This document shows, piece after piece, positions 8,514 through 22,415 of a stretch of 27,237 nt of DNA (positions are counted from its first letter, which is position 1; every line of letters begins with the position of its first letter). This DNA is from Phycisphaerales bacterium (GTDB taxonomy: Bacteria > Planctomycetota > Phycisphaerae > Phycisphaerales > SM1A02). Under the pieces are notes generated by a model. That model saw only the letters and a program-made list of their open reading frames with translations, made no database searches and had not been told where the DNA came from. The translations under genes were made by a program, and so were the position numbers. Where the stretch lies: the NCBI GenBank assembly GCA_044369805.1, contig JBILWQ010000001.1, positions 1 through 27,237 of the forward strand, written 5' to 3'.

Positions 8514-11378
8514 TCAGGAGAAGAGGATCAGCAGGGAGCCGATGTCGCCGGCGTCCACCTCGCCGCTGCCATCGAGATCGCCCGGGCAGGGGTCGCCGGG
8601 CGTGCAGGGCCCGAAGAGGATCAGCAGGGATCCGATGTCGCCGGCGTCAACGCTGCCGCTGCCGTCGAGGTCACCCGGGATGGCCGGTGCCGAGAAGTCC
8701 GTGGCGATGAGGTCGACCGAGTCGCTGAACACCGCTGGCATGGCCACGGTGATGAGCGAGCCTCGGCCATCGCGCGCCAGACCGATCACCGGTCGGCCGG
8801 ACACGATGGGCAACGAGCGGCCAAGCGCCAGGCCACCTTCCGTCCGCCGGTCCCGGATCGGGAAGATGCTTGCACCGCCACTCGCGGCACCCTGCCAGGA
8901 CACCGCGATGTCGGGCTTGCCATCCACGTCGGCGTCGACCACGCGGACGCCAACGCCCACCGCGGACGGATCGCCCGGATCGAGCGGCGTGGGGGGCCGA
9001 AGTCCCGAGGGCGCACCGCGCAGCAGTGCCGCCGAGGGCCGAGCGCCCACGGGGAAGGAGGCGCCAGCCGGGAAGTTGTCGCAGGCCACGAGCACGTCGG
9101 CCAGGCCGTCGGCATCGAGGTCGGCCACATCCATGTCCACCGGCACGCCCACGGTGGACGCCGCCGTGGTGGCCTGCAACTGGCCACCCTGATTGCGAAG
9201 CACCTGAACGAAGCCATTGGTGACCAGGGTGGACTTGGTCAGGCTTGAAGCGGTCGAGGAGCCGCCGGCCACCACATCGACATCATCGTCGTCGTCGATA
9301 TCGGTGCCCCGGATGGTCCGGGCGGAGCCTGCGAGGGTGTTGTCGGACTCGAAGGAGCCCGAGTTGGCCTCGACGACCTCGACCGACTCGCCATCCGAGG
9401 AGGACTTGCCCACGGCCACGGAAGCGCCTGCCGGCCGCTTGCTTCCTGCCTTGGCGCCGGAGGTCGCCAGGACCGCCACGCAGTTCAGCTGGGTGCCCTG
9501 GATGTAGTTGTCGCGGGTCCAGTAGGTCTGGAACGATCCTCCCACCAGACGGTGGGTGACCAGCATCGGTGGATCGTTGTGACAGGTGACCACGTCGAGC
9601 GTGCCGTCGCCATCGAGATCTCCGACATCCATGTCGCGGGCATTCGCGGGGATGGGGGTCTGGGTCACCGGGGCATAGGAACCGTCGACCTGGCGGTCCA
9701 GCACAACCAGCTTTCCCGGTCGGCCCGGGACTTCACTGCCGATGAGATTGATGATCTCGCTGCCTGAGCCCGAGGGCACCTCGAACGCGCAGGTCTTCAG
9801 GGGGGTGAGACCAAACGACGCGCCCGCCTGGACGCTCGGGCTGATGATCGATCCCCGGTTGACCGTGAGTTTCAGGTCCGTGCCGCCATCCCAGGCCACG
9901 CTCACGAAGAAGTCCGTGGGCAGCACCTCCGGCCAGACACGGACCACATCGAAGTTCCTTCCAAGGCCTGCCCACGTGCCGTGGTTGCGAAGGATGGTGA
10001 AGGTGTAGTCCGGCATGGGCGGTGCCAGGGTGTTCAGCGACCACTCGAGGCCGAGGAGTCCACCGATGTCGGCCGAGGCGTTCGCCTCGAGCGCGACACG
10101 AGGGCCGGTCGTGCTGCGGCCAGAGAGGTCCACCTGCCAACGCATGTTCGCGTCGGGACCCGCCGGATAGACCAGATGCGTGGCCGCCAGCGAGCCCACG
10201 CCGTCGGCGCAGTCGCCGTCGAGGCAATGCAGAACGCCGTCGAGCGAACCGGCCAGTTCGACCCTGCCCTGCACCGCCAGGGCGCCCCGGAGCGACGTGG
10301 AGGAGGGTCGCCACTCGCCGTCACCGCCGCTGAGGGCGAGCGTGCCCGCCGGATGCAGCAGGATGCGGCTCTCGGACGTCGACGGGTCCGCGCCGATGGG
10401 CGTCTCGACGATGAGATCGAGGTACGAGGGGATGGTCAGGTCGGCGAAACCGCCGGAGAGATCGACGTCGGCCTCGACCAGGGTCAGGCGCGTCTCGGTG
10501 TTCTCCTCGCGGCGCTTGGGGTCGAGCTGGAACGAGATGCCCTGGAGTGCGAGGTCACTCTGCGAAAGCACCAGCGACCAGCGATCCGGTCGATCGGGCG
10601 TCTCCGTCAGGATGAGCCCCGTGGCCTCGAACTGAACGCCATCGAGCGTGAACTGGTAGAGATCGTCGATGGCGAGCTGCGTCCACGCACGACTCAGGTT
10701 CCGGACGGTGCCATGCGCGATCTCGGCACGCTGCGTCCGGGTGGAACCGTCGCCGGCGAAGCGGAGATGCTGCGGAACCTGGTAACTGCCGGCGACCACG
10801 AGCGTGTGGTTCCCCAGCTCCAGGCGGAAGTCGCGGATCTGTCCTGCCGAAGCCACCGACGTGAACGAGAGGGTGCCCACCGCGTTGTCGCACCCGGCCT
10901 GCAATTCCAGCGAGTCGTAGGGATACTCCGGATAGAAGGGCATGAGCACCGAGCTGTTGGAAAGCGTGCCCGGACGCCCGAGGGACCAGTTCGCGGCGGT
11001 CTCGAAGACACGCGTGCCGAAGTCGGCGCCGACCCACGGGTTGGCACCGAAGGGTCCCAGTCGCTCGATGTCGGGTGCGCCGTCGCCATCGCAGTCGGTG
11101 GGGTCCAGCGGCACGGCGGAGCACACGTCCGGTTCACCGTTGTCGTTGGCGTCCATGCAGTAGAGCAGCGGTGCCGCACAGGCGGTGTTCGCCATGTCCA
11201 CGCAGGTGGCATCCCACTGGATGGTGCAGCAGAAGTCGTCGATGGCGCAGACCGCATCCTGGCAGGAGACATCCGCGCAGCCCGCACCAGTCTGCGGGGC
11301 ACAGCAGCAGCCCTGGCCCGACGAAGGGGCGGCCGTGGCCAGCGCGGCAAGCAGTGGGACGAGAATGATGGACCTCAC
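8514..11378 (-). CDS. Large secreted protein (954 aa): Cys-rich N-terminal module, beta-rich passenger-like middle, FG-GAP/VCBS repeats, C-terminal dockerin-like pair
   Basis: GTG start at 11378 with GGAG RBS and signal peptide MRSIILVPLLAALATA. FG-GAP-like motifs DVGDLDGDGTLDVV, DVADLDADGLADVL, DADVDGKPDIAV. Two GDLDGSGxVDAGDIGSLLILF repeats. Confidence 0.85.
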   Translation of the reverse strand: MRSIILVPLLAALATAAPSSGQGCCCAPQTGAGCADVSCQDAVCAIDDFCCTIQWDATCVDMANTACAAPLLYCMDANDNGEPDVCSAVPLDPTDCDGDGAPDIERLGPFGANPWVGADFGTRVFETAANWSLGRPGTLSNSSVLMPFYPEYPYDSLELQAGCDNAVGTLSFTSVASAGQIRDFRLELGNHTLVVAGSYQVPQHLRFAGDGSTRTQRAEIAHGTVRNLSRAWTQLAIDDLYQFTLDGVQFEATGLILTETPDRPDRWSLVLSQSDLALQGISFQLDPKRREENTETRLTLVEADVDLSGGFADLTIPSYLDLIVETPIGADPSTSESRILLHPAGTLALSGGDGEWRPSSTSLRGALAVQGRVELAGSLDGVLHCLDGDCADGVGSLAATHLVYPAGPDANMRWQVDLSGRSTTGPRVALEANASADIGGLLGLEWSLNTLAPPMPDYTFTILRNHGTWAGLGRNFDVVRVWPEVLPTDFFVSVAWDGGTDLKLTVNRGSIISPSVQAGASFGLTPLKTCAFEVPSGSGSEIINLIGSEVPGRPGKLVVLDRQVDGSYAPVTQTPIPANARDMDVGDLDGDGTLDVVTCHNDPPMLVTHRLVGGSFQTYWTRDNYIQGTQLNCVAVLATSGAKAGSKRPAGASVAVGKSSSDGESVEVVEANSGSFESDNTLAGSARTIRGTDIDDDDDVDVVAGGSSTASSLTKSTLVTNGFVQVLRNQGGQLQATTAASTVGVPVDMDVADLDADGLADVLVACDNFPAGASFPVGARPSAALLRGAPSGLRPPTPLDPGDPSAVGVGVRVVDADVDGKPDIAVSWQGAASGGASIFPIRDRRTEGGLALGRSLPIVSGRPVIGLARDGRGSLITVAMPAVFSDSVDLIATDFSAPAIPGDLDGSGSVDAGDIGSLLILFGPCTPGDPCPGDLDGSGEVDAGDIGSLLILFS
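8520..8679. repeat. Intragenic direct repeat, 2 x 67 bp with a 93-bp period, encoding the dockerin-like duplicated EF-hand motif
   Basis: 8520-8586 and 8613-8679 are near-identical (GAAGAGGATCAGCAGGGA...CCCGGG). Confidence 0.85.
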
Positions 11379-11487
11379 GGGAACTCCTGCAGGGCCCTCG
11401 ATTGTGTCGCCAACCCGCGCTGGAACAAGCGGGGAATCCCCATAATTGGAAGGCAATCTTGCGTTCCGTCCGAGAACCCGTTCCAGG

Positions 11488-12528
11488 TCAGGCCTGCATC
11501 GCTGCCCGCACTGCCTCGCCGGCGCGCTCGATGTCGGCGGGCCCGATGTCCAGGTGGGTGACCAGCCGCAGCCGCGTGGGGTCCAGGGCAAGCGTCAGCA
11601 CGCCGGCCCGCTCAAGCCGGGCCTGCAGTTCGAGCGCCCCGAGTCGGCGTGCATCGACATGCAGGAAGACCATGTTGGTGGGGATGGCCTCCGCTGGACA
11701 GGGCAGTTGGATGCCCGGCACGGTGGCGGCGAGCGACGCCAGCCTGCGCGCGTGGGCGTGATCCTGTTCGAGGCGATCGATGTGGTGGCTGAGCGCGTGC
11801 AGCGCCGCCGCCGCGAGCATGCCGCTCTGGCGCATGCCGCCGCCGAGCATCTTGCGGAAGCGACGGGCACGCGCGACGAGATCCTCCGAACCGGCCAGCG
11901 CACTGCCCACGGGACAGCCCAGACCCTTGGAGAAGCACACGCTCACGCTGTCGGCATGCGCCGCGAACTCGGCCGGCGCATGGCCCGAGGCCACGCACGC
12001 GTTCCAGAGCCTGGCGCCATCGATGTGCACCGCCAGGCCATCCTCGTGGGCGGCCTGCGCGACCTCGCGCAGCGTCTGCAGCGGCCAGAGGGTGCCGCCA
12101 CCTCGATTGTGCGTGTTCTCCACGACCAGCAGTCGCGGGTGGGGCGAGTGGATGTCGCGGTGGCGTCGGGCCGAACGCACGGCCGCCGCATCGAACAGCC
12201 CACCCGGCCCCTCGAGCGGCCGGATCATGCAGCCCGAGATGGCGGCGGGAGCACCGGTCTCGTAGTGGATGATGTGGCTCTCCCGGTGGGCCACGATCTC
12301 GTCGCCGGGCTGGCAATGGCAGCGGATGGCGAGCTGGTTGGCCATGGTGCCGCTGGGCACGAAGAGCGCGGCGGCCTTGCCCAGTCGCCTGGCCACCTCG
12401 GCTTCCAGGCGCGCCACCGTGGGTTCATCCCCGAGCACGTCATCGCCCAGCGGGGCGTGCCGCATGGCCTCCCACATGGCTTGCGTGGGGCGTGTGACGG
12501 TGTCCGATCGCAGGTCGATGACCGACAT
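11488..12528 (-). CDS. ltaE: Low-specificity L-threonine aldolase (PLP-dependent)
   Basis: IDLRSDTVTRPT, GDDVLGEDPT-like motif, FVPSGTMANQLA, ENTHNRGGG, HIDGARLWNA, SVCFSKGLGCPVGS (PLP lysine), RKMLGGGMRQSG. Confidence 0.95.
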   Translation of the reverse strand: MSVIDLRSDTVTRPTQAMWEAMRHAPLGDDVLGDEPTVARLEAEVARRLGKAAALFVPSGTMANQLAIRCHCQPGDEIVAHRESHIIHYETGAPAAISGCMIRPLEGPGGLFDAAAVRSARRHRDIHSPHPRLLVVENTHNRGGGTLWPLQTLREVAQAAHEDGLAVHIDGARLWNACVASGHAPAEFAAHADSVSVCFSKGLGCPVGSALAGSEDLVARARRFRKMLGGGMRQSGMLAAAALHALSHHIDRLEQDHAHARRLASLAATVPGIQLPCPAEAIPTNMVFLHVDARRLGALELQARLERAGVLTLALDPTRLRLVTHLDIGPADIERAGEAVRAAMQA

Positions 12529-13313: not shown

Positions 13314-13874
13314 TCAGAAGATGCCCGGGCGGGGCTGCGATCCGGCCAGGCGATCGAAGGAGACGGCTTCCACCCTCCAGGTGCCGTCGGCCTGGCGGCG
13401 CACGCGGAAGCTCCACGTGGTCAGCACCGGCATCTGGCTCGACTGCGTGCGCGTGAGGCAGCCGGCATCGACCTCCGCGAGGTCGGCCTCGAGCGTCCGC
13501 CCGCGGAGCAGCAGCGTGGTGTGCTGCTCGACTCGATGCCGTTCCTCGAGCGAACGAAGATCGCGATCGATCTCGCGGCGCGGCATGGCGGGCTGATCGA
13601 AGCCGCCGAAGTGGATGACCGCATCCGGCTGGAACCACGATCCGGCACCGATGGCATCGCCCGCCACAGCCCGGTCGATCAGCGAGGCCACGGTGCGCTC
13701 GCCTGACTCCGCCGGCGTGTCGATGGACCAGCCGCAGACGGCCAGCACGATGCCCGGAACCAGCAGCACCGCCGAGGCCAGGCGGGCGCGCGATCCGCCG
13801 AACCAGGCCAGGGGCAGCGCCGGCAGCATGACGAGCAGCAGCACCGACAGGGGATGGGCGAGGATCCAGTCCAT
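13314..13874 (-). CDS. Hypothetical membrane protein, 2 TM helices plus a possible NTF2/SnoaL-like domain
   Basis: Two hydrophobic helices, then an alpha-alpha-beta pattern ending in TTWSFRVRRQADGTWRVEAV, typical of NTF2-like folds. ATG 13874 chosen because upstream sequence belongs to the divergent gene. Confidence 0.65.
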   Translation of the reverse strand: MDWILAHPLSVLLLVMLPALPLAWFGGSRARLASAVLLVPGIVLAVCGWSIDTPAESGERTVASLIDRAVAGDAIGAGSWFQPDAVIHFGGFDQPAMPRREIDRDLRSLEERHRVEQHTTLLLRGRTLEADLAEVDAGCLTRTQSSQMPVLTTWSFRVRRQADGTWRVEAVSFDRLAGSQPRPGIF

Positions 13875-13887
13875 GCGGGCGGATGCA

Positions 13888-13897
13888 GGTATACGCT
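13888..13897. promoter_or_regulatory. Putative -10 box TACGCT (13892-13897) overlapping the GTATAC palindrome in the short divergent intergenic region
   Basis: Only AT-containing island between the head-to-head genes; 6 nt upstream of in-frame GTG 13904. Confidence 0.5.
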
Positions 13898-13903
13898 GCC
13901 CGC

Positions 13904-16402
13904 GTGAGCGCCGATCCGCACACCGAGCTGGCGGCACACCGCGTGGCCATGTGGCAATCGTTGCTGGCGAGTCCGCTGGCGGCCGCGTGGGATCGGCTCG
14001 CCGAGGGGTGCCTGGGTGTGCTGGTCTCCGCCGGCCCCAGTCTTTCGCGCAACGGCCGCGTGCTTGCGGAGGAGCGATGGACGGGTCGTCGGCTCGTGGT
14101 GGCCACCATCGATGCCATGGGACCATTGGGGAGGCTTGGCGCAAGGCCGGATGTGGTGGTCGCCTGCGAGCGCCCGCGCACGCTCGATGCCGAGGCTGCG
14201 GCGGACTCTGGCGCGGTGCTGGTGGCGTGGGGCGAGGCGGCCGAGGACCCCACGCTTCCGCCGGGCACCTGGTGCGTGCGGGGGCAGGCGGGTGATGGTG
14301 ACGAGACCTTCGCCGCGCACCTGCTGCTGCGACACCTGGGGTGCGGCACCGTGGTTCTGGCGGGCGTCGATCTGGCCTTCGTGGATGGCGTGGCACATGC
14401 GCCGGGTCACGCCCTGGATCGGGCATGGGCCCTCGAGAGCCATCCCTTCAGGTCGTGGGACTGGATGCACGCGCGACGAATCTCCATGCGGAAGGGGGGC
14501 CTGTTCCGCGAACCCGATCGCGGAGGCCGCACGGTGCTCATGGACACCATGCTGCGACGCGAGCGAACCGTGCTCGAGGCGGCCTTCGACGAGGACCGTC
14601 GGGCCGGTCGCATGGTCATCGACGCGACGGAGGGTGGCTGCACCAAGCGGCACACGGACCAGATGCCGCTGGAGGAGGCGATGCAGCGGCACGCCTCGCG
14701 GCGGGTGCCTGAACTGCAGGCGGCCCCGTCAACCGCGGCGAGTACCGTCACGCCGACCCCCGGCGTTCAGGCGATGCGCTCGCCGGTGCGAGCCATCGCC
14801 GTCGTGCCGGTGGATCCCGATCGGGGTGGCACCGGCGTGGAACGCAGCCTGGCGTCGGGATTGGGCGAACGAACCGTGCTCCGCTGCACGCTGGAGCGAC
14901 TGCTCAAGGCCAGGGAACTGGAGCAGGTGGTGCTGGTGGTGCCCGAGGGATGGGATGCCTCGATGGCGCTCGATGGTCTTCCCGTTCAGGGCCGGTTGCG
15001 GCTCATGACGCGCCGCGGGCATGCGAGCCCGCTGCAGCGGAGGAGTCGCTGGGCCGCGCGGGCATGGTGTGATGCGTGCTGGCGCGGCGGACTCGGAGGC
15101 CGCAGCGTGTTCGACGAGGTCCTGGATGCAGCCAGCGTGCAGATGGCTCTCGAGGCGACGGATGCCTCGCATGCCTTCCTCTGCGGACCGGACTGGCCCG
15201 TGGTCGCCGTGCGCGAGGCGTGGGGTGCCGATGGCATGGTCCGTGCCGCCCGGGTCTCGCCGCAACCGCGGTGGATGCACTTCGCGCCGGGTGCCGCGGG
15301 GGCCAGCGGATGCCTGCTCTCGCGAGAGGCCGTGGCGTCGCTGGTCTCAGGCGAGGTGCCGAGCATCGGTGCGTGGCTGGAGCGTCGCGTGGACTGGTCC
15401 AGACAGCCGGAGCGGATGCGGCCTCCCACCGGCGTCGCGACGCTGCGCGAGCGGCTGATCATGGACACGCCTCGGGCGATCCTTCGCCTGCGCCGTGCGG
15501 TGGAGCCGCTCCTGCTCAGGCACTCCGATCCCGATCAGGAGATGGTGGTGGAGGCCGTGTCCCGGGTGGCCGAGGCGGCACCGACGCTGCCTCCGCAGCA
15601 GCTCATCGTGGAACTCAACACCGGTCGACGCGGATGCGGCCTCAGCAGTCCGCACCGGTTCGGTTCCCTGCAGCGGCCGCCCATGACGCTGCGGCGGATG
15701 GATCGCATGACCGCCCGTCTGGCCGAGGCGAAGGATGTGGTGGTCACGCTGGGTGGCGCCGGGGACCCGCTGATCCACCCCGACGTGGCGGACATGGTCC
15801 GCCTGCTGCGGGCCGCGGGTGCGCTGGCCATCGAGTTGCGCACGGAGCTGCTCTCGCCGACGGCGGTGGAGCGGGTGCGCGACCTCGACGTGGAGGTGAT
15901 CTCGGTGGATCTGCATGCGGTCGATGCCCCGGGCTACCGCGTGATGATGGGGCCGGGGGATTTCGGAGGGGCCTGTGCGGCGCTGCACGACCTGCTGCTG
16001 CAGCGGCAGGGAGCGCGGACCGATCCCTTCCCTTGGCTGCTGCCGCGCGTGGAGCGCCTCCGCGCTTCCGTGGCGTGGGTGCCGATGTTCGTGGAGGTCT
16101 GGACGCGGGATGGCGATGGCGCGATCGTGGATCCACCGCCCCAGGCGGATCCATGGGGCGCGCCCCTGCCGCATGCCCCGATGGCGGCCACGGGTGACGA
16201 GGCCTGGGCCCACGCGGACACGCTCCGCCGCATGACGGTGCTCTCGGATGGCCGGGTGCCGGTGGTGGATGGCGACCTGCTCGGGAGTCTCTCCGTGGGC
16301 TCCGTGGACACCGAGGATCTGGTCGCCCTGCACCGGTCGCTGGTCTCGATGCGGCGGGACCGCGGGGGCCGCGCCGGATTGGCCCTTTCCCGAATGGCCT
16401 GA
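13904..16402 (+). CDS. Multidomain protein: Maf/MptE-like (MAF_flag10/DUF115) domain, cytidylyltransferase-like domain, degenerate radical SAM domain, degenerate SPASM domain
   Basis: Maf motifs VSAGPSLSRN, GARPDVVV, LGCGTVVLAGVDLAF, VIDATEGG. GT-A nucleotidyltransferase-like VLRCTLERLLKARELEQVVLVV. rSAM-like PQQLIVELNT, TLGGAGDPLIHPD, ISVDLHA. SPASM-like MTVLSDGRVPVVDGD...VGSV. GTG 13904 preferred over ATG 13883 because TACGCT lies 6 nt upstream. Confidence 0.75.
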   Translation: MSADPHTELAAHRVAMWQSLLASPLAAAWDRLAEGCLGVLVSAGPSLSRNGRVLAEERWTGRRLVVATIDAMGPLGRLGARPDVVVACERPRTLDAEAAADSGAVLVAWGEAAEDPTLPPGTWCVRGQAGDGDETFAAHLLLRHLGCGTVVLAGVDLAFVDGVAHAPGHALDRAWALESHPFRSWDWMHARRISMRKGGLFREPDRGGRTVLMDTMLRRERTVLEAAFDEDRRAGRMVIDATEGGCTKRHTDQMPLEEAMQRHASRRVPELQAAPSTAASTVTPTPGVQAMRSPVRAIAVVPVDPDRGGTGVERSLASGLGERTVLRCTLERLLKARELEQVVLVVPEGWDASMALDGLPVQGRLRLMTRRGHASPLQRRSRWAARAWCDACWRGGLGGRSVFDEVLDAASVQMALEATDASHAFLCGPDWPVVAVREAWGADGMVRAARVSPQPRWMHFAPGAAGASGCLLSREAVASLVSGEVPSIGAWLERRVDWSRQPERMRPPTGVATLRERLIMDTPRAILRLRRAVEPLLLRHSDPDQEMVVEAVSRVAEAAPTLPPQQLIVELNTGRRGCGLSSPHRFGSLQRPPMTLRRMDRMTARLAEAKDVVVTLGGAGDPLIHPDVADMVRLLRAAGALAIELRTELLSPTAVERVRDLDVEVISVDLHAVDAPGYRVMMGPGDFGGACAALHDLLLQRQGARTDPFPWLLPRVERLRASVAWVPMFVEVWTRDGDGAIVDPPPQADPWGAPLPHAPMAATGDEAWAHADTLRRMTVLSDGRVPVVDGDLLGSLSVGSVDTEDLVALHRSLVSMRRDRGGRAGLALSRMA

Positions 16403-16430
16403 GTCCACGGCCGGCCTAGCATCGGCCCTG

Positions 16431-17153
16431 ATGGCCGACTCGATCGTGGTGGATTTCCGGAGACCCGTGCCCCTCTTCCCGCTGGGGGAGACGGTGCTGC
16501 TGCCCCACGCGGTGCAGGGGCTGCACGTCTTCGAGCCTCGCTACCGGCAGATGGTGGAGGCCTGCCTGGCCGAGACCGGTGGCGGTTCCGTGCTCTCCGC
16601 GAGGCCGATCGCCTTGGCCACGGTGGATTCGACGGTTCGAGGCCGCCGACCTTCGCTGCCGGAACTGCGGCCCGCGGTCTGCGTGGGCCAGATCATCCGC
16701 CATGAGCGACTGGCCGATGGCCGCCACAACATCGTGCTGCATGGCGTGTGTCGGGCCAGGATCGTGGAGATGGTCGAGCCTGGAGGGCAGCGACTCTACC
16801 GCGAGGCGGTGCTGCGGCCCCTGGAGCCACCCGGCCGCGCGGCACCGCACATGCCGCAGACGCGGCGCATGCTGCGGGAGATGCTTCAGCGACCGAGCGT
16901 CCGAAGGCTGGCGAGCGTGAAGGCGGTGACCGCGTGGGCCGAGCGGGGCGACCTCCCGACGCACGCGGTGATCGAGGTGATCGGCGCCGCCCTGGTGCAG
17001 GACGAGGCCTCGCGCTACGCCCTGCTTGCGTGCGATGATCCGTGGGCCCGGGCCCGGCTGGTGGCCGAGGCGATTCACCGGCTCGAACGCGTGGTCACCG
17101 GCGCGGAGCGGCAGAAGCCCGGGACCTGGCCCAAGGGGCTGAGCTGGAACTGA
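16431..17153 (+). CDS. Stand-alone Lon protease N-terminal (substrate-binding) domain protein
   Basis: VPLFPLGETVLLPHAVQGLHVFEPRYRQMVEACL, VCVGQIIRHERLADGRHNIVLHGVCRARI. No AAA+ or protease domain. Confidence 0.9.
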   Translation: MADSIVVDFRRPVPLFPLGETVLLPHAVQGLHVFEPRYRQMVEACLAETGGGSVLSARPIALATVDSTVRGRRPSLPELRPAVCVGQIIRHERLADGRHNIVLHGVCRARIVEMVEPGGQRLYREAVLRPLEPPGRAAPHMPQTRRMLREMLQRPSVRRLASVKAVTAWAERGDLPTHAVIEVIGAALVQDEASRYALLACDDPWARARLVAEAIHRLERVVTGAERQKPGTWPKGLSWN

Positions 17154-17156
17154 GCC

Positions 17157-17627
17157 ATGCGGCACTGGCTGCTCAAGACCGAACCCGACGTCTACTCGAT
17201 CGACGACCTTCGCGCCGATGGTCGCACGGACTGGGACCGCATCCGCAACCATCAGGTGAAGCTCTTTCTTCGCGACGCGATGGCCCAGGGTGACCGCTGC
17301 CTCATCTACCACTCGAATGCGGAGCCCACGGGCGTGGTGGGCACGGCCGTGGTGTGCGGCGAGGCCGTGCCCGATGCCACCCAGTTCCGCAAGGCCGACG
17401 AGGGCTTCGAGCCCCGCGCCACGCGAGAGGCGCCCGTCTGGTGGGCCCGTCCGATCCGCTTCGAGAGCCGCTTCGAGCGATGCGTGGAACTGGCCGAGCT
17501 CCGCGGGGAACCTCGGCTTCGCGGCCTGGCCACGCTCAAGCGAGGCAACCGCCTGAGCGTGACGCCCGTCACCGCCGCGGAGTTCGCCTGCATCGAAGCC
17601 ATGGGCGGCCGTGTCCGGCGCGGGTAG
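17157..17627 (+). CDS. EVE domain-containing protein
   Basis: HWLLKTEPDVYSIDDL, WDRIRNHQ, MAQGDRCLIYHSN, PDATQF, RGNRLSVTPV. Confidence 0.93.
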   Translation: MRHWLLKTEPDVYSIDDLRADGRTDWDRIRNHQVKLFLRDAMAQGDRCLIYHSNAEPTGVVGTAVVCGEAVPDATQFRKADEGFEPRATREAPVWWARPIRFESRFERCVELAELRGEPRLRGLATLKRGNRLSVTPVTAAEFACIEAMGGRVRRG

Positions 17628-17660
17628 GCTGTCGCCGCGCGGACGCGCAAGGAGGCTTCC

Positions 17661-18227
17661 ATGGGTGGCGTGCTCATCGTGGTGCTGATCGTGCTGGGGA
17701 TGATCGTGGTCGCCCTCCTGTGGGGCGTCGGCGTCTACAACAACCTGCAGCGGTCCCGCATCGGTGCGGAGGGCGCGTTCGCGGACATCGACGTGGAGCT
17801 GCGGCGTCGGCATGACCTGGTGCCCAATCTGGTGGAGACCGTGAAGGGCTACGCCGCGCACGAGCGTCAGACCCTGGAGTCCGTCATGCAGGCGAGGGCC
17901 GCGGCCATGAACGCGAAGGACCTGAACGGGCGCATCGAGGCCGAAGGGGCGCTGACCCGGGGCCTGGGCCGGCTGCTCGCGGTGGCCGAGGCCTATCCCA
18001 CGCTCAAGGCGGATGGCGGCTTCATGCGGCTCCAGGGCGAGCTCTCCGACACCGAGAACCGGATCGCGGGCCGACGCAACGGCTTCAACGCGGCCGCCGG
18101 CAGCTTCAACGAGACGCTGGCGGTGTTCCCCAACAACCTGGTGGGCGGTCTCTTCGGCTTTCGTCCGATCGACTTCCTGAAGGAGGCCGACGAGGCCGTT
18201 CGCACCGCGCCGAAGGTGTCGTTCTAG
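17661..18227 (+). CDS. lemA: LemA family protein
   Basis: N-terminal TM, YNNL, IDVELRRRHDLVPNLVETVKGYAAHE, VAEAYPTLKA, TENRIAGRRNGFN, FPNNLVG. RBS GGAGG. Confidence 0.95.
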   Translation: MGGVLIVVLIVLGMIVVALLWGVGVYNNLQRSRIGAEGAFADIDVELRRRHDLVPNLVETVKGYAAHERQTLESVMQARAAAMNAKDLNGRIEAEGALTRGLGRLLAVAEAYPTLKADGGFMRLQGELSDTENRIAGRRNGFNAAAGSFNETLAVFPNNLVGGLFGFRPIDFLKEADEAVRTAPKVSF

Positions 18228-18229
18228 GC

Positions 18230-19255
18230 ATGGCCCGCGAACGGCTGGTCTCTGCCGAGGAGCGTCCGGAGGAGAGCGAGGCCCTGGCTTCGCCCGCCCT
18301 GCGTCCGCAGCGGCTGGCCGATTACGTGGGGCAGCGTGAGCTGGTCGAGCGGGTTCGCATCGCGGTGCAGGCCGCTCGGGCGAGGCAGGAACCCGTGGAC
18401 CACGTGCTGCTGCACGGACCTCCTGGTCTGGGCAAGACCACGCTGGCGCACGTGATCGCGGCGGAGATGGGCACCCGCGCGGTGGTGACGAGCGGACCCG
18501 CGCTGACCAAGGCGGGGGACCTGGTTGGCACACTCACGCGGTTGGGCGCCGGTGACGTGCTCTTCATCGACGAGATTCACCGGTTGCCCGCGGCGGTCGA
18601 GGAGTACATCTACCCCGCCATGGAGGAGTACCGGGTGGATTTCACCGTGGATCAGGGCATGCACGCCCGCATGGTGACCCTGCCGCTCAAGCCGTTCACG
18701 CTCATCGGTGCCACCACTCGCGCCGGCCTGCTCACGCAGGCGCTCCGGAGCCGCTTCGGCCTGGCGCACCACCTGGACTTCTACGCCCAGGACGAGATCG
18801 AGCGCATCCTGGCGCGGGCGGCGGAGCGACTGGGCCTGAAGGCCGAGACCGCGGCGCTGGCCACGCTGGCCACGCGCAGCCGTGGCACGCCGCGCGTGGC
18901 CCTTCGGCTGCTTCGCCGCGTGCGTGACTGGTCGCAGGTGAGGAGCGCGGGCCGCATCGATGGTGCCGCCGTGGCCGCGGGTCTGGAGCTGGAGGGCGTG
19001 GACGCCTTCGGTCTGGACGAACTGGATCGCGCCTATCTTCGGACCCTGGCCCGCACCTACAAGGGTGGACCCGTGGGTCTGGAGACGCTGGCGGCCACGC
19101 TGGGCGAGGATGCCGACACGCTCGAGGATCTGGTGGAGCCCTTCCTGCTCCGCACGGGCCTGCTGGCCCGGACGCGGCAGGGGCGAAGGCTCACCGCCGC
19201 CGGCGCCGAGCGCGTGGGGGAGCGGCTCCCCGACGGCGCCCCCTTCGGCGAGTGA
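18230..19255 (+). CDS. ruvB: Holliday junction branch migration ATPase RuvB
   Basis: LRPQRLADYVGQ, Walker A GPPGLGKTT, Walker B LFIDEIHRL, FTLIGATTRAG, RSRGTPR, GGPVGLETLA, VEPFLL...RTRQGR. Confidence 0.97.
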   Translation: MARERLVSAEERPEESEALASPALRPQRLADYVGQRELVERVRIAVQAARARQEPVDHVLLHGPPGLGKTTLAHVIAAEMGTRAVVTSGPALTKAGDLVGTLTRLGAGDVLFIDEIHRLPAAVEEYIYPAMEEYRVDFTVDQGMHARMVTLPLKPFTLIGATTRAGLLTQALRSRFGLAHHLDFYAQDEIERILARAAERLGLKAETAALATLATRSRGTPRVALRLLRRVRDWSQVRSAGRIDGAAVAAGLELEGVDAFGLDELDRAYLRTLARTYKGGPVGLETLAATLGEDADTLEDLVEPFLLRTGLLARTRQGRRLTAAGAERVGERLPDGAPFGE

Positions 19256-19259
19256 GGAT

Positions 19260-22200
19260 TCAGAAGGCGTTGTTGAGTCCCGACCACGGGCCGCCCATGG
19301 CACCCTGGTCCGCGGCGTTCAGGTTGCCCGTGCCCAACCCCCGACCTCCGGCTGCGGGAATGGAGAACTGCAGGCCGAAGGAGTACTGATCCGTGATCAC
19401 GCTGTACCCCACGTTCGCCCCGAGATTGAAGTCGGGGAAGGTGCGCACCAGCGAGGCGCTCATGGCCCGAAGGTCGCCCTGCCCGAGATCGATCTGCGGG
19501 CTGGCCGAGAGCGAGTAGAGCTTGCCGATCTGGTAGGTCACGCCGGGCTGCAGCAGCTCGTCGTTGGGATAGATCGCGCTGTTGTAGAAGTTGTTGATCA
19601 TCCGGTACTCGCAGAAGAAGGCGACGTCCGGCGAGTGCTGCAGGTTCAGGCCGACCGAGCCGCGGGCGAAGTTGTCCTGTCCGGCGTTCTGCGCGGTGTT
19701 GCGGTCCTCGAAGAGCAGGGTGGTGCTGCCGTATGCCGTCAGGGTGCTGGAGAGTGCCCACGTGGAGCGTGCGTAGGCGTGGTTGCCCCACTGGGAGAGT
19801 TCGGGTCGCCACGTGAAGAACTGCGGGGTCGGGCTCTGGTAGTAGGCCACGTTGCCCAGGCCGTTGGCGGGCCGCTGGAAGTTCGCGTCGTCGTTGTTCA
19901 CCACCGCGCCGAAGTCGAGCATGATCCAGTCCACGCTGCGCCAGTTGCCGGGACCGCCCCGATAGGTCTGCCATCGTTGCGTGAGGCCCACCTGGGCCAC
20001 GGCTGCGCCGGTCTGGCCCTCCACATCCTGGTCGAAGATGGGGTACTGCCCGTTGTCGCCGGTGTCGTAGCCGCCCCAGAGCACCGCGTTGGGTTGCAGC
20101 ACCCACCGCAGCCGGTTCAGGTCGAGCGTGGAGCTCTGGACCTGCCCGAATTCCTGGCTGAACTCGGCGCTGGCCCGCGCACCGCCGCCGAAGACACCGC
20201 GGGCCACGCCACCCGGCCCGCCCGGCCCCACCGTGGCCGTGCGGTAGTCCTGGAAGTCGTTCAGCATGTAGCCGATCAGCGAACCCGAGGCGAAGGGTGT
20301 CACCTTCACCATGTCCCAGTCGAGCGGGGCGGCCAGCTCATGCCGCGTGTAGCCGCGGATGTAGGTCTCCTCGTTGTAGCCCTGCGAGGTGTACAGGTTG
20401 CCGATGCTCGAGTTGGCGTTGATGCCGGTCGCGAACGCATCCGCCTGCGCGGCCAGCGGATCGGTGAGCCCGTTGGGCGTGCCGCGCTCCAGCTGCATGG
20501 ACATGCCGTTGGCCGAGTACTCCTGGGTCCAGGTGAAGCTGCCGTCGAAGAGCGAATCCCCGTAGCGCCGGTAGGTGGCCTCGGGGTACTTCGCCACGCT
20601 GTAGGGCCGGCTGGCCAGCATCCAGCTGTTGATCACGTAGCGGTCCAGGTCGTACTTGACCAGCGTGTCGAACGCGGTGTGGTTGGACTGGAGCTTCACG
20701 AAGCCGCTGGTCTCGTACTCGCGGCGGTTCATGAAGTCGATGGGCTTGAACGTGCTCACGAACGCGCCGTCGCTGGTCCACGCCAGCTGCCCCTGAAGCA
20801 GCGAGGTGCGGTCGAGGGCCACCGTGGTCCCACCATCGATCAGGCCTCGCCATTCGAGCGGCGAGACGTATTCCACGCCGGAGGAACTCTGCTCGGTGTT
20901 CTGGAAGTCGTAGAAGCCGTAGAGGTTCAGGTCGCCCGGCGTGCCGGTGAGGCGAAGCCCCAGGCCGATGCCGTTCTTGGAATAGATGTCGTTCCCCAGT
21001 TCGGCACCCATGTCGAACGGGGGCTTCCACCCCACCAGCTGCCACAGATCCCAACGTGTGCCCACGGTGACGCCCTGGTACTCGTTGAAGCCCACCTGCA
21101 CCTGGGGCAGCAGCGGTCGATCCGCGTCGCCGCGGAGGTAGGGCCAGTAGAAGAAGGGCACGCTGCCAGCGCGCATGGTGATGTGCGAGGCCTCGAGCGT
21201 GGTCGTGGGATCGTCCGCCGGTCCCTTGGAGATGGTCACGCGGCTGGCGCCCACCGACAGGTGGGGTCGGTAGAACTCGCTGAGCGACACGCTGGCGTCG
21301 CGGGCCTCGAACTGGTCCTTGGCCACCTGCCGGACTTCCGCGGCGCGGGCGATCACGGGAATTCCGCTTCGCATGGAGGTCCGCAGCACCGCCTGCAGTG
21401 CGGCGGCGCGTCCGGTGGTGACGTCGTAGTACACCTGCCCGCCGCGCATGGCGTAGGCGCCATCCGTCGCTGTCACGTCGCCCTCAAGGTAGACGCCCTC
21501 CACCAGCCCCGCATCGAGCTGGCCCGCGCCTTCGCGGATGCCCCGGGCCGAGCCTGGCCGAAGGAAGATGACGGCGCGCTCCGCGGCCAGGCGCATCTCG
21601 CCCGACTTGAGCGATGGATCGCGGGCCATGATGTCCACCTGTGCGCCGCCAGTGACGGTGACAAGGTCCTGCTTCTCGTCCAGGTGCGTCTCCCGGCCTG
21701 CGAAGGTCACGACATCGCCCTTGCGGAACGCGGGGGTGCCGGAGGCGGGCAGTTGCACCGCCCCCGGTGTGGCCGGAGCCGCGGGGGTGGATGGGGCCGG
21801 GGCGGTCGAGGCCTGCTGCACCTGCAGGTCGGGCTCCTTCGGTGGAACGGGCCGATCGACCTGCGGCTGCACGCGCATCGAGGCGGGTCCCGCGGCGATC
21901 GATCGCAGGTGCTCCGCCAGACGGGCGTCGGCCGGACCGGTCACCACGGGGCCCGGCGAGCGGTCCTCCACCACGGGGGTGGCCAGCTTGACCTGTCCGC
22001 GGAACGAGGCCGTGACCAGCACGTTGCGCCCCTCGACGCCCAGGCCGGCGCCTCGCGTGGGCTCGGTCACCTCGGGGAACCACGCGGCCATCTGGGTGAT
22101 CACCCCTTCGGCCGAGGGGATGCGGTTGATCCACACCACGGCGCTGGCCGCGCCGAAGTTGTAGCCGCCGATCGTCATGCGGACATCGCCGTCGATCGCG

Positions 22201-22415
22201 AGCCGCTGGGTGTCATCCACCTTCCACCGGAAGGCCCGCGTGGCACGGATGGAAAGATCGCCCTTCACGGGCACGATGGGCAGCACGAAGCCGCTCAGTC
22301 GGTCTCCGGAGATCGGGGCGTCGCGCAGACCCGCCTGGCTCGGGGGCGGAGCAAGGTCCGGCGAACCCGCGGCCAGCAGCACCGGCAGGATCAGCGGCAG
22401 CAGTCGGCGCGTCAC
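19260..22415 (-). CDS. Large outer-membrane beta-barrel protein, LptD (LPS assembly)-like
   Basis: Signal peptide. OstA-like segment VYLEGDV...GGQVYYDVTTGRA, ITMRAGSVPFFYWPYL (LptD-type), long C-terminal alternating aromatic beta strands, terminal Phe. Assignment by pattern only. Confidence 0.7.
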   Translation of the reverse strand: MTRRLLPLILPVLLAAGSPDLAPPPSQAGLRDAPISGDRLSGFVLPIVPVKGDLSIRATRAFRWKVDDTQRLAIDGDVRMTIGGYNFGAASAVVWINRIPSAEGVITQMAAWFPEVTEPTRGAGLGVEGRNVLVTASFRGQVKLATPVVEDRSPGPVVTGPADARLAEHLRSIAAGPASMRVQPQVDRPVPPKEPDLQVQQASTAPAPSTPAAPATPGAVQLPASGTPAFRKGDVVTFAGRETHLDEKQDLVTVTGGAQVDIMARDPSLKSGEMRLAAERAVIFLRPGSARGIREGAGQLDAGLVEGVYLEGDVTATDGAYAMRGGQVYYDVTTGRAAALQAVLRTSMRSGIPVIARAAEVRQVAKDQFEARDASVSLSEFYRPHLSVGASRVTISKGPADDPTTTLEASHITMRAGSVPFFYWPYLRGDADRPLLPQVQVGFNEYQGVTVGTRWDLWQLVGWKPPFDMGAELGNDIYSKNGIGLGLRLTGTPGDLNLYGFYDFQNTEQSSSGVEYVSPLEWRGLIDGGTTVALDRTSLLQGQLAWTSDGAFVSTFKPIDFMNRREYETSGFVKLQSNHTAFDTLVKYDLDRYVINSWMLASRPYSVAKYPEATYRRYGDSLFDGSFTWTQEYSANGMSMQLERGTPNGLTDPLAAQADAFATGINANSSIGNLYTSQGYNEETYIRGYTRHELAAPLDWDMVKVTPFASGSLIGYMLNDFQDYRTATVGPGGPGGVARGVFGGGARASAEFSQEFGQVQSSTLDLNRLRWVLQPNAVLWGGYDTGDNGQYPIFDQDVEGQTGAAVAQVGLTQRWQTYRGGPGNWRSVDWIMLDFGAVVNNDDANFQRPANGLGNVAYYQSPTPQFFTWRPELSQWGNHAYARSTWALSSTLTAYGSTTLLFEDRNTAQNAGQDNFARGSVGLNLQHSPDVAFFCEYRMINNFYNSAIYPNDELLQPGVTYQIGKLYSLSASPQIDLGQGDLRAMSASLVRTFPDFNLGANVGYSVITDQYSFGLQFSIPAAGGRGLGTGNLNAADQGAMGGPWSGLNNAF

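Follow-up and report, generated by a model that had tools for sequence, protein, structure and literature searches.

A short fusion of a Maf core with cytidylyltransferase- and radical-SAM/SPASM-type folds in Phycisphaerales, and its probable descent from a larger Maf-plus-partner unit

The first 27,237 nucleotides (nt) of contig JBILWQ010000001.1, from a Phycisphaerales bacterium of the phylum Planctomycetota (assembly GCA_044369805.1), are referred to here as the window, and they carry an unusual gene at 13883-16402 of the forward strand. Its predicted product combines four folds in one polypeptide: the central domain of a Maf glycosyltransferase comes first, followed by the fold of a cytidylyltransferase, then a barrel of the radical-SAM type and a SPASM-type tail. 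Sequence comparison indicates that this gene is a derived short form, descended from a fusion of Maf with a module that is made of the three other folds. The reading that we favor, with a probability of about 0.55, is that the short form would be a one-chain unit of core plus helper that binds a sugar of the ulosonic acid type, activated with cytidine monophosphate (CMP), and acts on a client other than flagellin.

Motility accessory factors (Maf) are CMP-nonulosonate:protein O-glycosyltransferases, examples of which are Magnetospirillum magneticum Maf (Protein Data Bank, PDB, entry 5MU5), Campylobacter PseD, PseE and Maf4, Aeromonas Maf1 and Clostridium botulinum Maf. To our knowledge, no other enzymes are known to attach sialic-acid-like sugars to the proteins of bacteria. 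In Phycisphaerae, Maf is almost always accompanied by a large, unstudied partner derived from two enzyme folds, and this partner would represent a novel type of subunit for Maf. We found no paper on a Maf/radical-SAM/spiro-SPASM fusion architecture, and the AlphaFold DB labels the fusion only as a "DUF115 domain-containing protein". The original prediction for the window gene, made from the sequence, described a candidate single-polypeptide glycosylation machine with radical SAM-like and SPASM-like segments, whose sugar substrate would be made elsewhere.

Domain folds, lost motifs and selection

An AlphaFold2 model of the protein, built on 46 homologues, reached a mean predicted local distance difference test score (pLDDT) of 89.2 and a predicted template modeling score of 0.89, and its domains were assigned with Foldseek and VIA-align. 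The model agrees with the predicted order of four segments: Maf central domain, cytidylyltransferase fold, radical-SAM barrel and SPASM-type tail. By VIA-align, residues 30 to about 290 superposed on Maf 5MU5 with a Z score of 20.0, the 218 aligned residues falling within positions 262-654 of that chain, i.e., its central domain only. Residues 301-573 matched a Leptospira cytidylyltransferase (6OEW) with a Z of 20.8, followed by KdsB (16.0), PseF (14.6) and NeuA (14.4), and residues 563-839 matched the radical SAM/SPASM proteins MoaA (Z 17.6), BlsE (17.1), BtrN (16.7) and anSME (16.6).

Sequence profiles recognized the same segments poorly. The PF01973 profile scored 29.2 bits against the window protein, below its cut-off of 34.6, and matched only through positions 29-78 of 171; in the long and split relatives described below, it scored 112-131 bits and matched from position 2 to position 170. 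PF04055 scored 20.7 bits (cut-off 29.5), and searches of the window protein with PF02348 (E <= 1) and PF13186 returned no match. Thus the profiles expected for the four segments were either sub-threshold (PF01973, PF04055 and the spiro-SPASM profile TIGR04321) or silent (PF02348 and PF13186), while the folds themselves could be assigned by structure. A search of PDB sequences with a profile of the module gave marginal matches only (E >= 0.002), and the Maf part of a long form found 5MU5 at an E value of 0.0097; the fold assignments therefore rest on predicted structures.

The gene is a single uninterrupted frame of 839 amino acids (aa) when read from the ATG at 13883, the stop codon lying within the coordinates given above. 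Alternative starts are a GTG at 13904 (832 aa), which was the choice of the original prediction, and an ATG at 13949 (817 aa), which is the start picked by the gene caller in two close homologues. Homologues of 59-97% identity cover the protein over its full length. The Maf motifs had been placed correctly, with AGPSL at residues 50-54 (nt 14030-14044) and IDATEGG beginning at about nt 14618. The single-frame fusion, likewise, is real: it recurs in many clusters, in three genomes of the window's genus and in independent assemblies with conserved synteny.

The Maf core occupies 13970-14707 (residues 30-275) and consists of the central, MAF_flag10/MptE-like domain only, the window copy being devoid of the N-terminal Rossmann-like domain and the C-terminal helical bundle of Maf. 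Three motifs are kept, AGPSL..N, G.DL.F.DG and IDATEGG..K, and all of them are common to the 46 aligned family members, long and short alike (46 of 46); such residues would be expected where a ligand binds. The short forms have lost three others, ALD..H.IS.RF.EG, TVAH and QT.LK, each of which is conserved in 90% or more of the long forms, and also dPqaNP, which is found in most long forms. The reduction is confined to the Maf part. Median lengths in long as compared to short forms are 243 and 32 aa for the N-terminus, 69 and 46 aa for an insert in the Maf core, and 182 and 47 aa for the segment from the Maf core to the cytidylyltransferase-like domain; the latter domain itself (222 and 216 aa) and the radical-SAM/SPASM-like part (329 and 321 aa) are nearly unchanged.

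A disordered linker follows the core in the window protein (14708-14782, residues 276-300; pLDDT 51-56) and stands where long forms carry the C-terminal helical bundle of Maf, a difference of ~135 residues. When residues 1-678 of a long form were modeled (pLDDT 89.1), this bundle was located at residues 512-670, and the Maf part aligned with the whole of three-domain 5MU5 (539 residues, Z 23.3). The C-terminal bundle of Maf has weak similarity to flagellin chaperones and to flagellins (PMC11339370). An origin of the short core from an archaeal MptE-type pterin diphosphokinase was considered as well, given that PF01973 also covers this family and that the kinase HPPK (8SD5) matches the long form with a Z of 13.2; it was rejected on the grounds that the core shares 35-41% identity with its counterparts in the long fusions and that its clade is nested among these.

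The cytidylyltransferase-fold domain follows at 14783-15442 (residues 301-520), with structural matches to 6OEW (Z 20.8) and to KdsB, PseF, NeuA and IspD (Z 14-16). KdsB/NeuA-type enzymes have an N-terminal nucleotide-binding loop with conserved Arg/Lys. The corresponding loop of the window protein reads PVDPDRGGTG, in which Gly alone is invariant across the family, and the motifs conserved in the family are WRGG, (F/Y)DE and PDWP. A helical connector with the conserved motif MDTPR..R.RRA.EP (15443-15577, residues 521-565) leads to the radical-SAM-type barrel, and it is within this connector that the match to TIGR04321 begins.

The barrel (15578-16117, residues 566-745) has the partial TIM-barrel fold, with Z scores of 16-17.8 to MoaA, BlsE, BtrN and SuiB, and it has no cluster triad. 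The expected CxxxCxxC site reads ELNTGRRGCG (nt 15611-15640), and the single Cys near this site is Ser in some relatives. A script run over 327 proteins found the triad in one unrelated radical SAM protein and in 0 of the 326 homologues. A GGE-like motif, GGAGDPLIHP (nt 15752-15781), is kept and aligns with GGEPLMH of BlsE. The SPASM/twitch-type tail (16118-16399, residues 746-839), to the last residue of which the structural alignments extend, keeps the hairpin motif VLSDGRVP..DLLG and contains no Cys. Tail Cys counts are 3-7 in stand-alone relatives and mostly 0-2 in fused forms. The stand-alone modules (e.g., P0163, P0175 and P0205) have tail motifs such as GCG, CRQ, LCDQDW and PLC..C..W and again no triad, and the Poriferisphaera copy passes the PF13186 threshold at 33 bits. 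Fusion to Maf is accompanied by loss of the auxiliary-cluster Cys.

These observations bear on the possibility that the protein is a genuine radical SAM/SPASM enzyme, one that modifies a nucleotide sugar by means of non-canonical cluster ligands. The retained barrel and GGE-like motif, the Cys-bearing tails of the stand-alone relatives and the Poriferisphaera match speak for such an enzyme, as does a lead from an Atlas feature search to proteins of another phylum with CTP_transf_3, Radical_SAM and SPASM domains. Nevertheless, because CxxxCxxC is missing in all homologues and the window's tail lacks Cys, the protein is not a radical SAM enzyme, and this chemistry can be excluded from its function. 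Judged from the residues present, the window protein cannot generate a 5'-deoxyadenosyl radical by the known mechanism, and replacement ligands are highly improbable, the near-site Cys being changed to Ser in some members. The protein is a clean example of a radical-SAM fold retained without any iron-sulfur site.

The ratio of non-synonymous to synonymous substitution rates (dN/dS) was calculated by the Nei-Gojobori method for all pairs formed by the window gene and three of its relatives, whose identity to it is 75-88%. It was 0.12-0.22 for the whole gene, 0.04-0.12 for the Maf core, which is the most constrained part, 0.12-0.28 for the cytidylyltransferase-like domain, 0.10-0.22 for the radical-SAM-like barrel and 0.11-0.19 for the SPASM-like tail. 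The disordered linker at residues 276-300 served as an internal control, its ratios of 0.5-2.4 being those of neutral behavior. Since dN/dS is low in all four domains and the linker is neutral, we consider the gene to be functional and not a relic.

A Maf partner family and its link to nonulosonate genes

Homologues of the fusion protein formed 63 clusters at 90% identity, and an exhaustive search of 50%-identity representatives returned 849 clusters at E <= 1e-3, most of them of 1150-1300 aa. By source names, the proteins come from Phycisphaeraceae, Phycisphaerales, Tepidisphaeraceae, Poriferisphaera, Mucisphaera and Phycisphaera, and a locus scan with the module alignment returned only Planctomycetota loci. 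The family was present in 134 of 151 sampled genomes of the window's order (123 of the 140 high-quality genomes) and in 41 of 401 genomes of a phylum-wide sample. The architecture therefore recurs across Phycisphaerae, as had been asked of it, in three guises: split pairs, in which a Maf gene of 650-750 aa is directly followed by a module gene of 500-620 aa; long fusions of ~1180-1470 aa; and short fusions of 810-1070 aa, to which the window protein belongs.

In a quick maximum-likelihood tree of the module part, the stand-alone modules formed one clade, and 14 of the 16 short forms formed another, with a Shimodaira-Hasegawa-like approximate likelihood ratio test (SH-aLRT) value of 86, that was nested among the long fusions. 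A long stem branch (0.81) leads to the clade of the window. The sequences thus point to the window gene being a derived short form whose ancestor was a fusion of Maf with the module.

The tie of the family to nonulosonate genes is seen in its long and split members. At locus L006 the genes that come after the long fusion, with overlapping stop and start codons, encode a PseF-like cytidylyltransferase, a synthase resembling NeuB, and NeuC (279 bits, above the 236-bit cut-off). The arrangement Maf, module, PseF-like cytidylyltransferase and NeuC is found both in G001, which is a complete genome from the order, and in Poriferisphaera sp. WC338, which is in culture. In the order sample, NeuB was found in 131 of 151 and flagellin in 127 of 151 genomes, and a manual count over the listed rows places NeuB and the module on one contig, no more than ~4 kb apart, in at least 68 genomes. 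All long-form genera of the window's bacterial family possess flagellin as well as NeuB. Because neuA/pseF-like genes adjoin the long and split forms, the module's own cytidylyltransferase domain is not the synthetase of the pathway. The predicted link to nonulosonate glycosylation, and the co-occurrence with neu genes and flagellin that should accompany it, accordingly hold for the family, through Maf fusion or adjacency and the neu genes, and not for the window copy.

In the parent form, then, a complete, three-domain Maf is joined by fusion or by translational coupling to a module of ~550 aa, in which a degenerate cytidylyltransferase fold is followed by a radical-SAM barrel devoid of its [4Fe-4S] Cys and a SPASM-type tail; the unit usually heads an operon of the neuA/neuB/neuC type in flagellated cells. 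Maf enzymes need an element for acceptor specificity, which may be a cis-encoded GlfM or a fused tetratricopeptide repeat (TPR) domain (10.1101/2023.12.03.569772). By analogy with GlfM and the TPR of Maf-1, the module of the parent form would most likely assist Maf as a helper or specificity subunit that binds nucleotide sugars and carries out no radical chemistry.

The module had also been likened to the uncharacterized "spiro-SPASM" architecture. This comparison survives in part: TIGR04321 is the best NCBIfam match of the window protein and the folds come in the same order, but membership fails, with scores of 33.5 bits for the window protein and 146 for the best relative against a cut-off of 250. 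Scores in the relatives range from 17.8 to 146 bits, and stand-alone modules match positions 86-506 of the 510 of the profile. As judged by these scores, the planctomycete module would be a sister or distant relative of spiro-SPASM and not a member. In the Atlas feature search, which provides leads only, the nearest non-planctomycete clusters were a "spiro-SPASM protein" of Spirochaetota, for which SPASM is given in 93% of members and Radical_SAM is not listed, and a Thermodesulfobacteriota cluster with CTP_transf_3, Radical_SAM and SPASM.

Missing partners, a kept export gate and the role of the short form

The window's own assembly (G000) is 76% complete, and two further genomes of its genus, G424 and G488, are 98% and 96% complete. 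Six-frame profile searches for NeuB, Flagellin_N, Flagellin_C, Flg_bb_rod, Flg_bbr_C and FliG_C found none of these in any of the three. The same NeuB and flagellar profiles match nearly every other genome of the order, and in G491, a flagellated genome of this bacterial family that served as positive control, Flg_bbr_C was matched five times and FliG_C once. The co-occurrence of the fusion with a NeuB/PseI/LegI synthase and flagellin, therefore, was not found in the window's genus. Other short-form genera of the bacterial family are similar, being mostly without flagellin, and they have no NeuB or a NeuB-family gene on another contig only. The exception as to flagellin is G456 (locus L021, 6919-9966), a complete chromosome with a short form, flagellin genes and no NeuB-family gene, which could be an intermediate between the long-form and filament-less states.

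Parts of a flagellar-type export gate are kept. FlhA, unexpectedly, is retained in the window's genus; in genomes that keep the gate with no filament genes found, it scores 606-716 bits, as compared to 796-883 in flagellated relatives. In G424, genes for FliP, a FliR-like protein, FlhA, an FlhF-like SRP54-type GTPase and a sigma-70-family factor are clustered (locus L019, 7705-14114), and export-gate genes of the window's own genome lie on contigs C138 and C303. Four genera (g1, g2, g301 and g298) keep the gate with no flagellin, rod/hook or FliG found. Among flagellin-less genera of the bacterial family, the short form occurs in three of four that retain FlhA and in one of six that lack it.

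As neither flagellar filament genes nor a sugar pathway was found in the genus, the window protein probably does something other than glycosylate flagellin. In the window lineage, Maf has been trimmed to its central domain and the neu genes are missing from the locus; in the mechanism that we favor, what is left would be a core-plus-helper unit that binds a CMP-ulosonate and acts on another client. The donor might be the CMP derivative of Kdo (3-deoxy-D-manno-octulosonate), the only CMP-ulosonate whose synthetase, KdsB, was found in the genus; the sole CTP_transf_3 gene of G424 codes for KdsB, its score of 209 bits exceeding the cut-off of 155. The Maf of C. botulinum is reported to accept Kdo as a donor (PMC11339370).

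Several points weigh against this reading. The absences stand on G424, G488 and six-frame profile searches, the window's own assembly being 76% complete, and KdsB was not found in that assembly. With TVAH, ALD..H.IS.RF.EG and dPqaNP gone, the short core may no longer bind or transfer a sugar. The loop of the cytidylyltransferase fold lacks the basic residues of KdsB/NeuA-type enzymes, so that nucleotide binding is no more than putative, and the helper role of the module is proposed from fusion and adjacency. The tree, finally, is a quick one with a midpoint root.

The same losses are the strength of the main rival, a fully non-catalytic scaffold. Here all four domains would be catalytically dead, and the short form would be a pure pseudoenzyme serving as a scaffold, chaperone or regulator, with neither binding nor transfer of sugar. 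Consistent with this are the missing Fe-S Cys, the undetectable cytidylyltransferase profile, the disappearance of four conserved motif blocks of the Maf core together with both accessory Maf domains, a donor pathway and acceptor genes that were not found in the genus, and the stem of 0.81, which suggests a change of function. What it does not readily explain is that the Maf core is the most constrained part of the gene (dN/dS 0.04-0.12) and that AGPSL..N, G.DL.F.DG and IDATEGG..K are common to all 46 aligned forms. We therefore consider it a serious but doubtful alternative to a sugar-binding unit.

The favored reading can be extended to the export gate, in a version that is speculative and, in our estimate, unlikely as it stands. 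Following the loss of filament, rod/hook, rotor and nonulosonate genes, the unit would have been exapted to mark or escort, possibly with Kdo, a non-flagellin substrate of the flagellar-type gate that the genus keeps, with FliP, FliR-like protein, FlhA, FlhF-like GTPase and the sigma-70-family, possibly FliA-like, factor.

The original prediction itself, that of an active single-chain nonulosonate machine for flagellin or pilin with its sugar genes elsewhere in the genome, is slightly less probable still. It draws on the parent family, which is tied to neuA/neuB/neuC and occurs in flagellated genomes, and on the incompleteness of the window's assembly (76%). It is contradicted by two genus genomes of 96-98% completeness that, like the third, yielded no NeuB-family, flagellin N/C, rod/hook or FliG match, and by the deletion of the N- and C-terminal Maf domains. 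With two of the three Maf domains and several core motifs lost, the picture of a complete machine supplied with substrate from elsewhere fits the long forms of the family and not the window copy. Least probable of all, just below the radical SAM enzyme considered above, is a decaying relic or pseudogene left by flagellum loss, or an assembly chimera, as partners not found in the genus and a truncated Maf part might suggest, since no relative has a broken frame, the gene evolves at a dN/dS of 0.12-0.22 against a neutral linker, and the same architecture with conserved synteny is seen in many independent assemblies.

In this lineage, a Maf-derived unit has outlived the flagellum and the sugar pathway under strong selection, which implies a second job for it. 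The window lineage can be regarded as a natural experiment in which this unit is separated from both, and the cultured relatives Poriferisphaera, Mucisphaera and Phycisphaera make the question testable at the level of the family.

Genomic setting and comparison with known systems

The gene lies in a conserved block comprising a threonine aldolase-like gene, two small divergent genes, the fusion gene, and genes for a Lon N-terminal domain, an EVE domain, LemA and RuvB. A spacer of 28 nt (16403-16430) separates it from the Lon N-domain gene at 16431-17153. In the long-form relative L006, ~6.5 kb lie between the two orthologous genes and hold neuA-like, neuB-like and neuC genes plus four others. 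The neighbors (Lon N-domain, EVE, LemA, RuvB, threonine aldolase-like and transketolase) were tried as a clue to function and set aside as a conserved housekeeping synteny block. Long antisense open reading frames (ORFs) of up to 705 aa (the latter at 16416-18533 of the reverse strand), which overlap genes of the other strand such as those for Lon N-domain, EVE and LemA, were rejected as artifacts of high GC content because relatives have Pfam-supported forward-strand genes there.

Divergent from the fusion gene, a reverse-strand gene at 13314-13874 encodes a protein of 186 aa that starts with a hydrophobic segment and belongs to no Pfam family. Throughout the bacterial family it is conserved next to long and short forms, with BLASTP E values of 3e-23 to L006 and 2e-28 to L007, and it may be a partner of the fusion protein. 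Marginal similarity (E 8e-4) was also seen to a gene upstream of Maf in another bacterial family. Elsewhere in the window, two large flanking ORFs of the reverse strand are syntenic in relatives: one of 1025 aa with FG-GAP repeats (8514-11591) and one of 1051 aa without a Pfam family (19260-22415). The EVE-domain protein (17157-17627, forward strand; 142 bits) sits between the Lon N-domain gene and LemA; its gene is kept in the closest relatives and is missing at L002 and L004, two syntenic loci of greater distance.

Several known systems resemble parts of the fusion protein. The CMP-ulosonate synthetases KdsB (1GQC), PseF (9FTC) and NeuA (6IFD) and the Leptospira enzyme 6OEW share with it a GT-A-like nucleotidyltransferase fold (Z 14-21); unlike them, the window protein has no PF02348 match, and its N-terminal nucleotide loop is replaced by PVD...GG.G. 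The radical SAM enzymes BtrN (4M7T), BlsE (7VOB), DesII (8HZV) and anSME (4K36) have in common with it the partial TIM barrel, the C-terminal hairpin/helix tail (Z 16.6-17.1) and the GGE-like motif, whereas CxxxCxxC and the auxiliary-cluster Cys are absent from the window protein. The TIGR04321 spiro-SPASM proteins, uncharacterized and named for the spirochaetes, have the same order of nucleotidyltransferase-like, radical-SAM-like and SPASM parts; the planctomycete module differs in its phylum, in its fusion to Maf and in scores far below the cut-off. A role of the module as proposed here, if true, would be the first functional lead for spiro-SPASM-like proteins.

The closest comparisons are with Maf and its accessory elements. 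The window protein has the central MAF_flag10/MptE-like fold of the Maf flagellin glycosyltransferases (Z 20.0) and their AGPSL and G.DL..DG motifs, and its long-form relatives align to all of 5MU5 and adjoin neuA/neuB/neuC-type genes in flagellated genomes. It departs from them in having the central domain only, and in carrying ~540 additional residues of cytidylyltransferase and Cys-less radical-SAM/SPASM folds. GlfM, a small four-helix bundle that serves Maf-2, and the TPR domain fused to Maf-1 (bioRxiv 10.1101/2023.12.03.569772, by Unay, Kint and Viollier) are of unrelated folds and different size, the planctomycete module consisting of ~550 aa of enzyme-derived domains. What the two have in common is the arrangement, in which an accessory element accompanies Maf in cis, either as a separate gene or fused to it.

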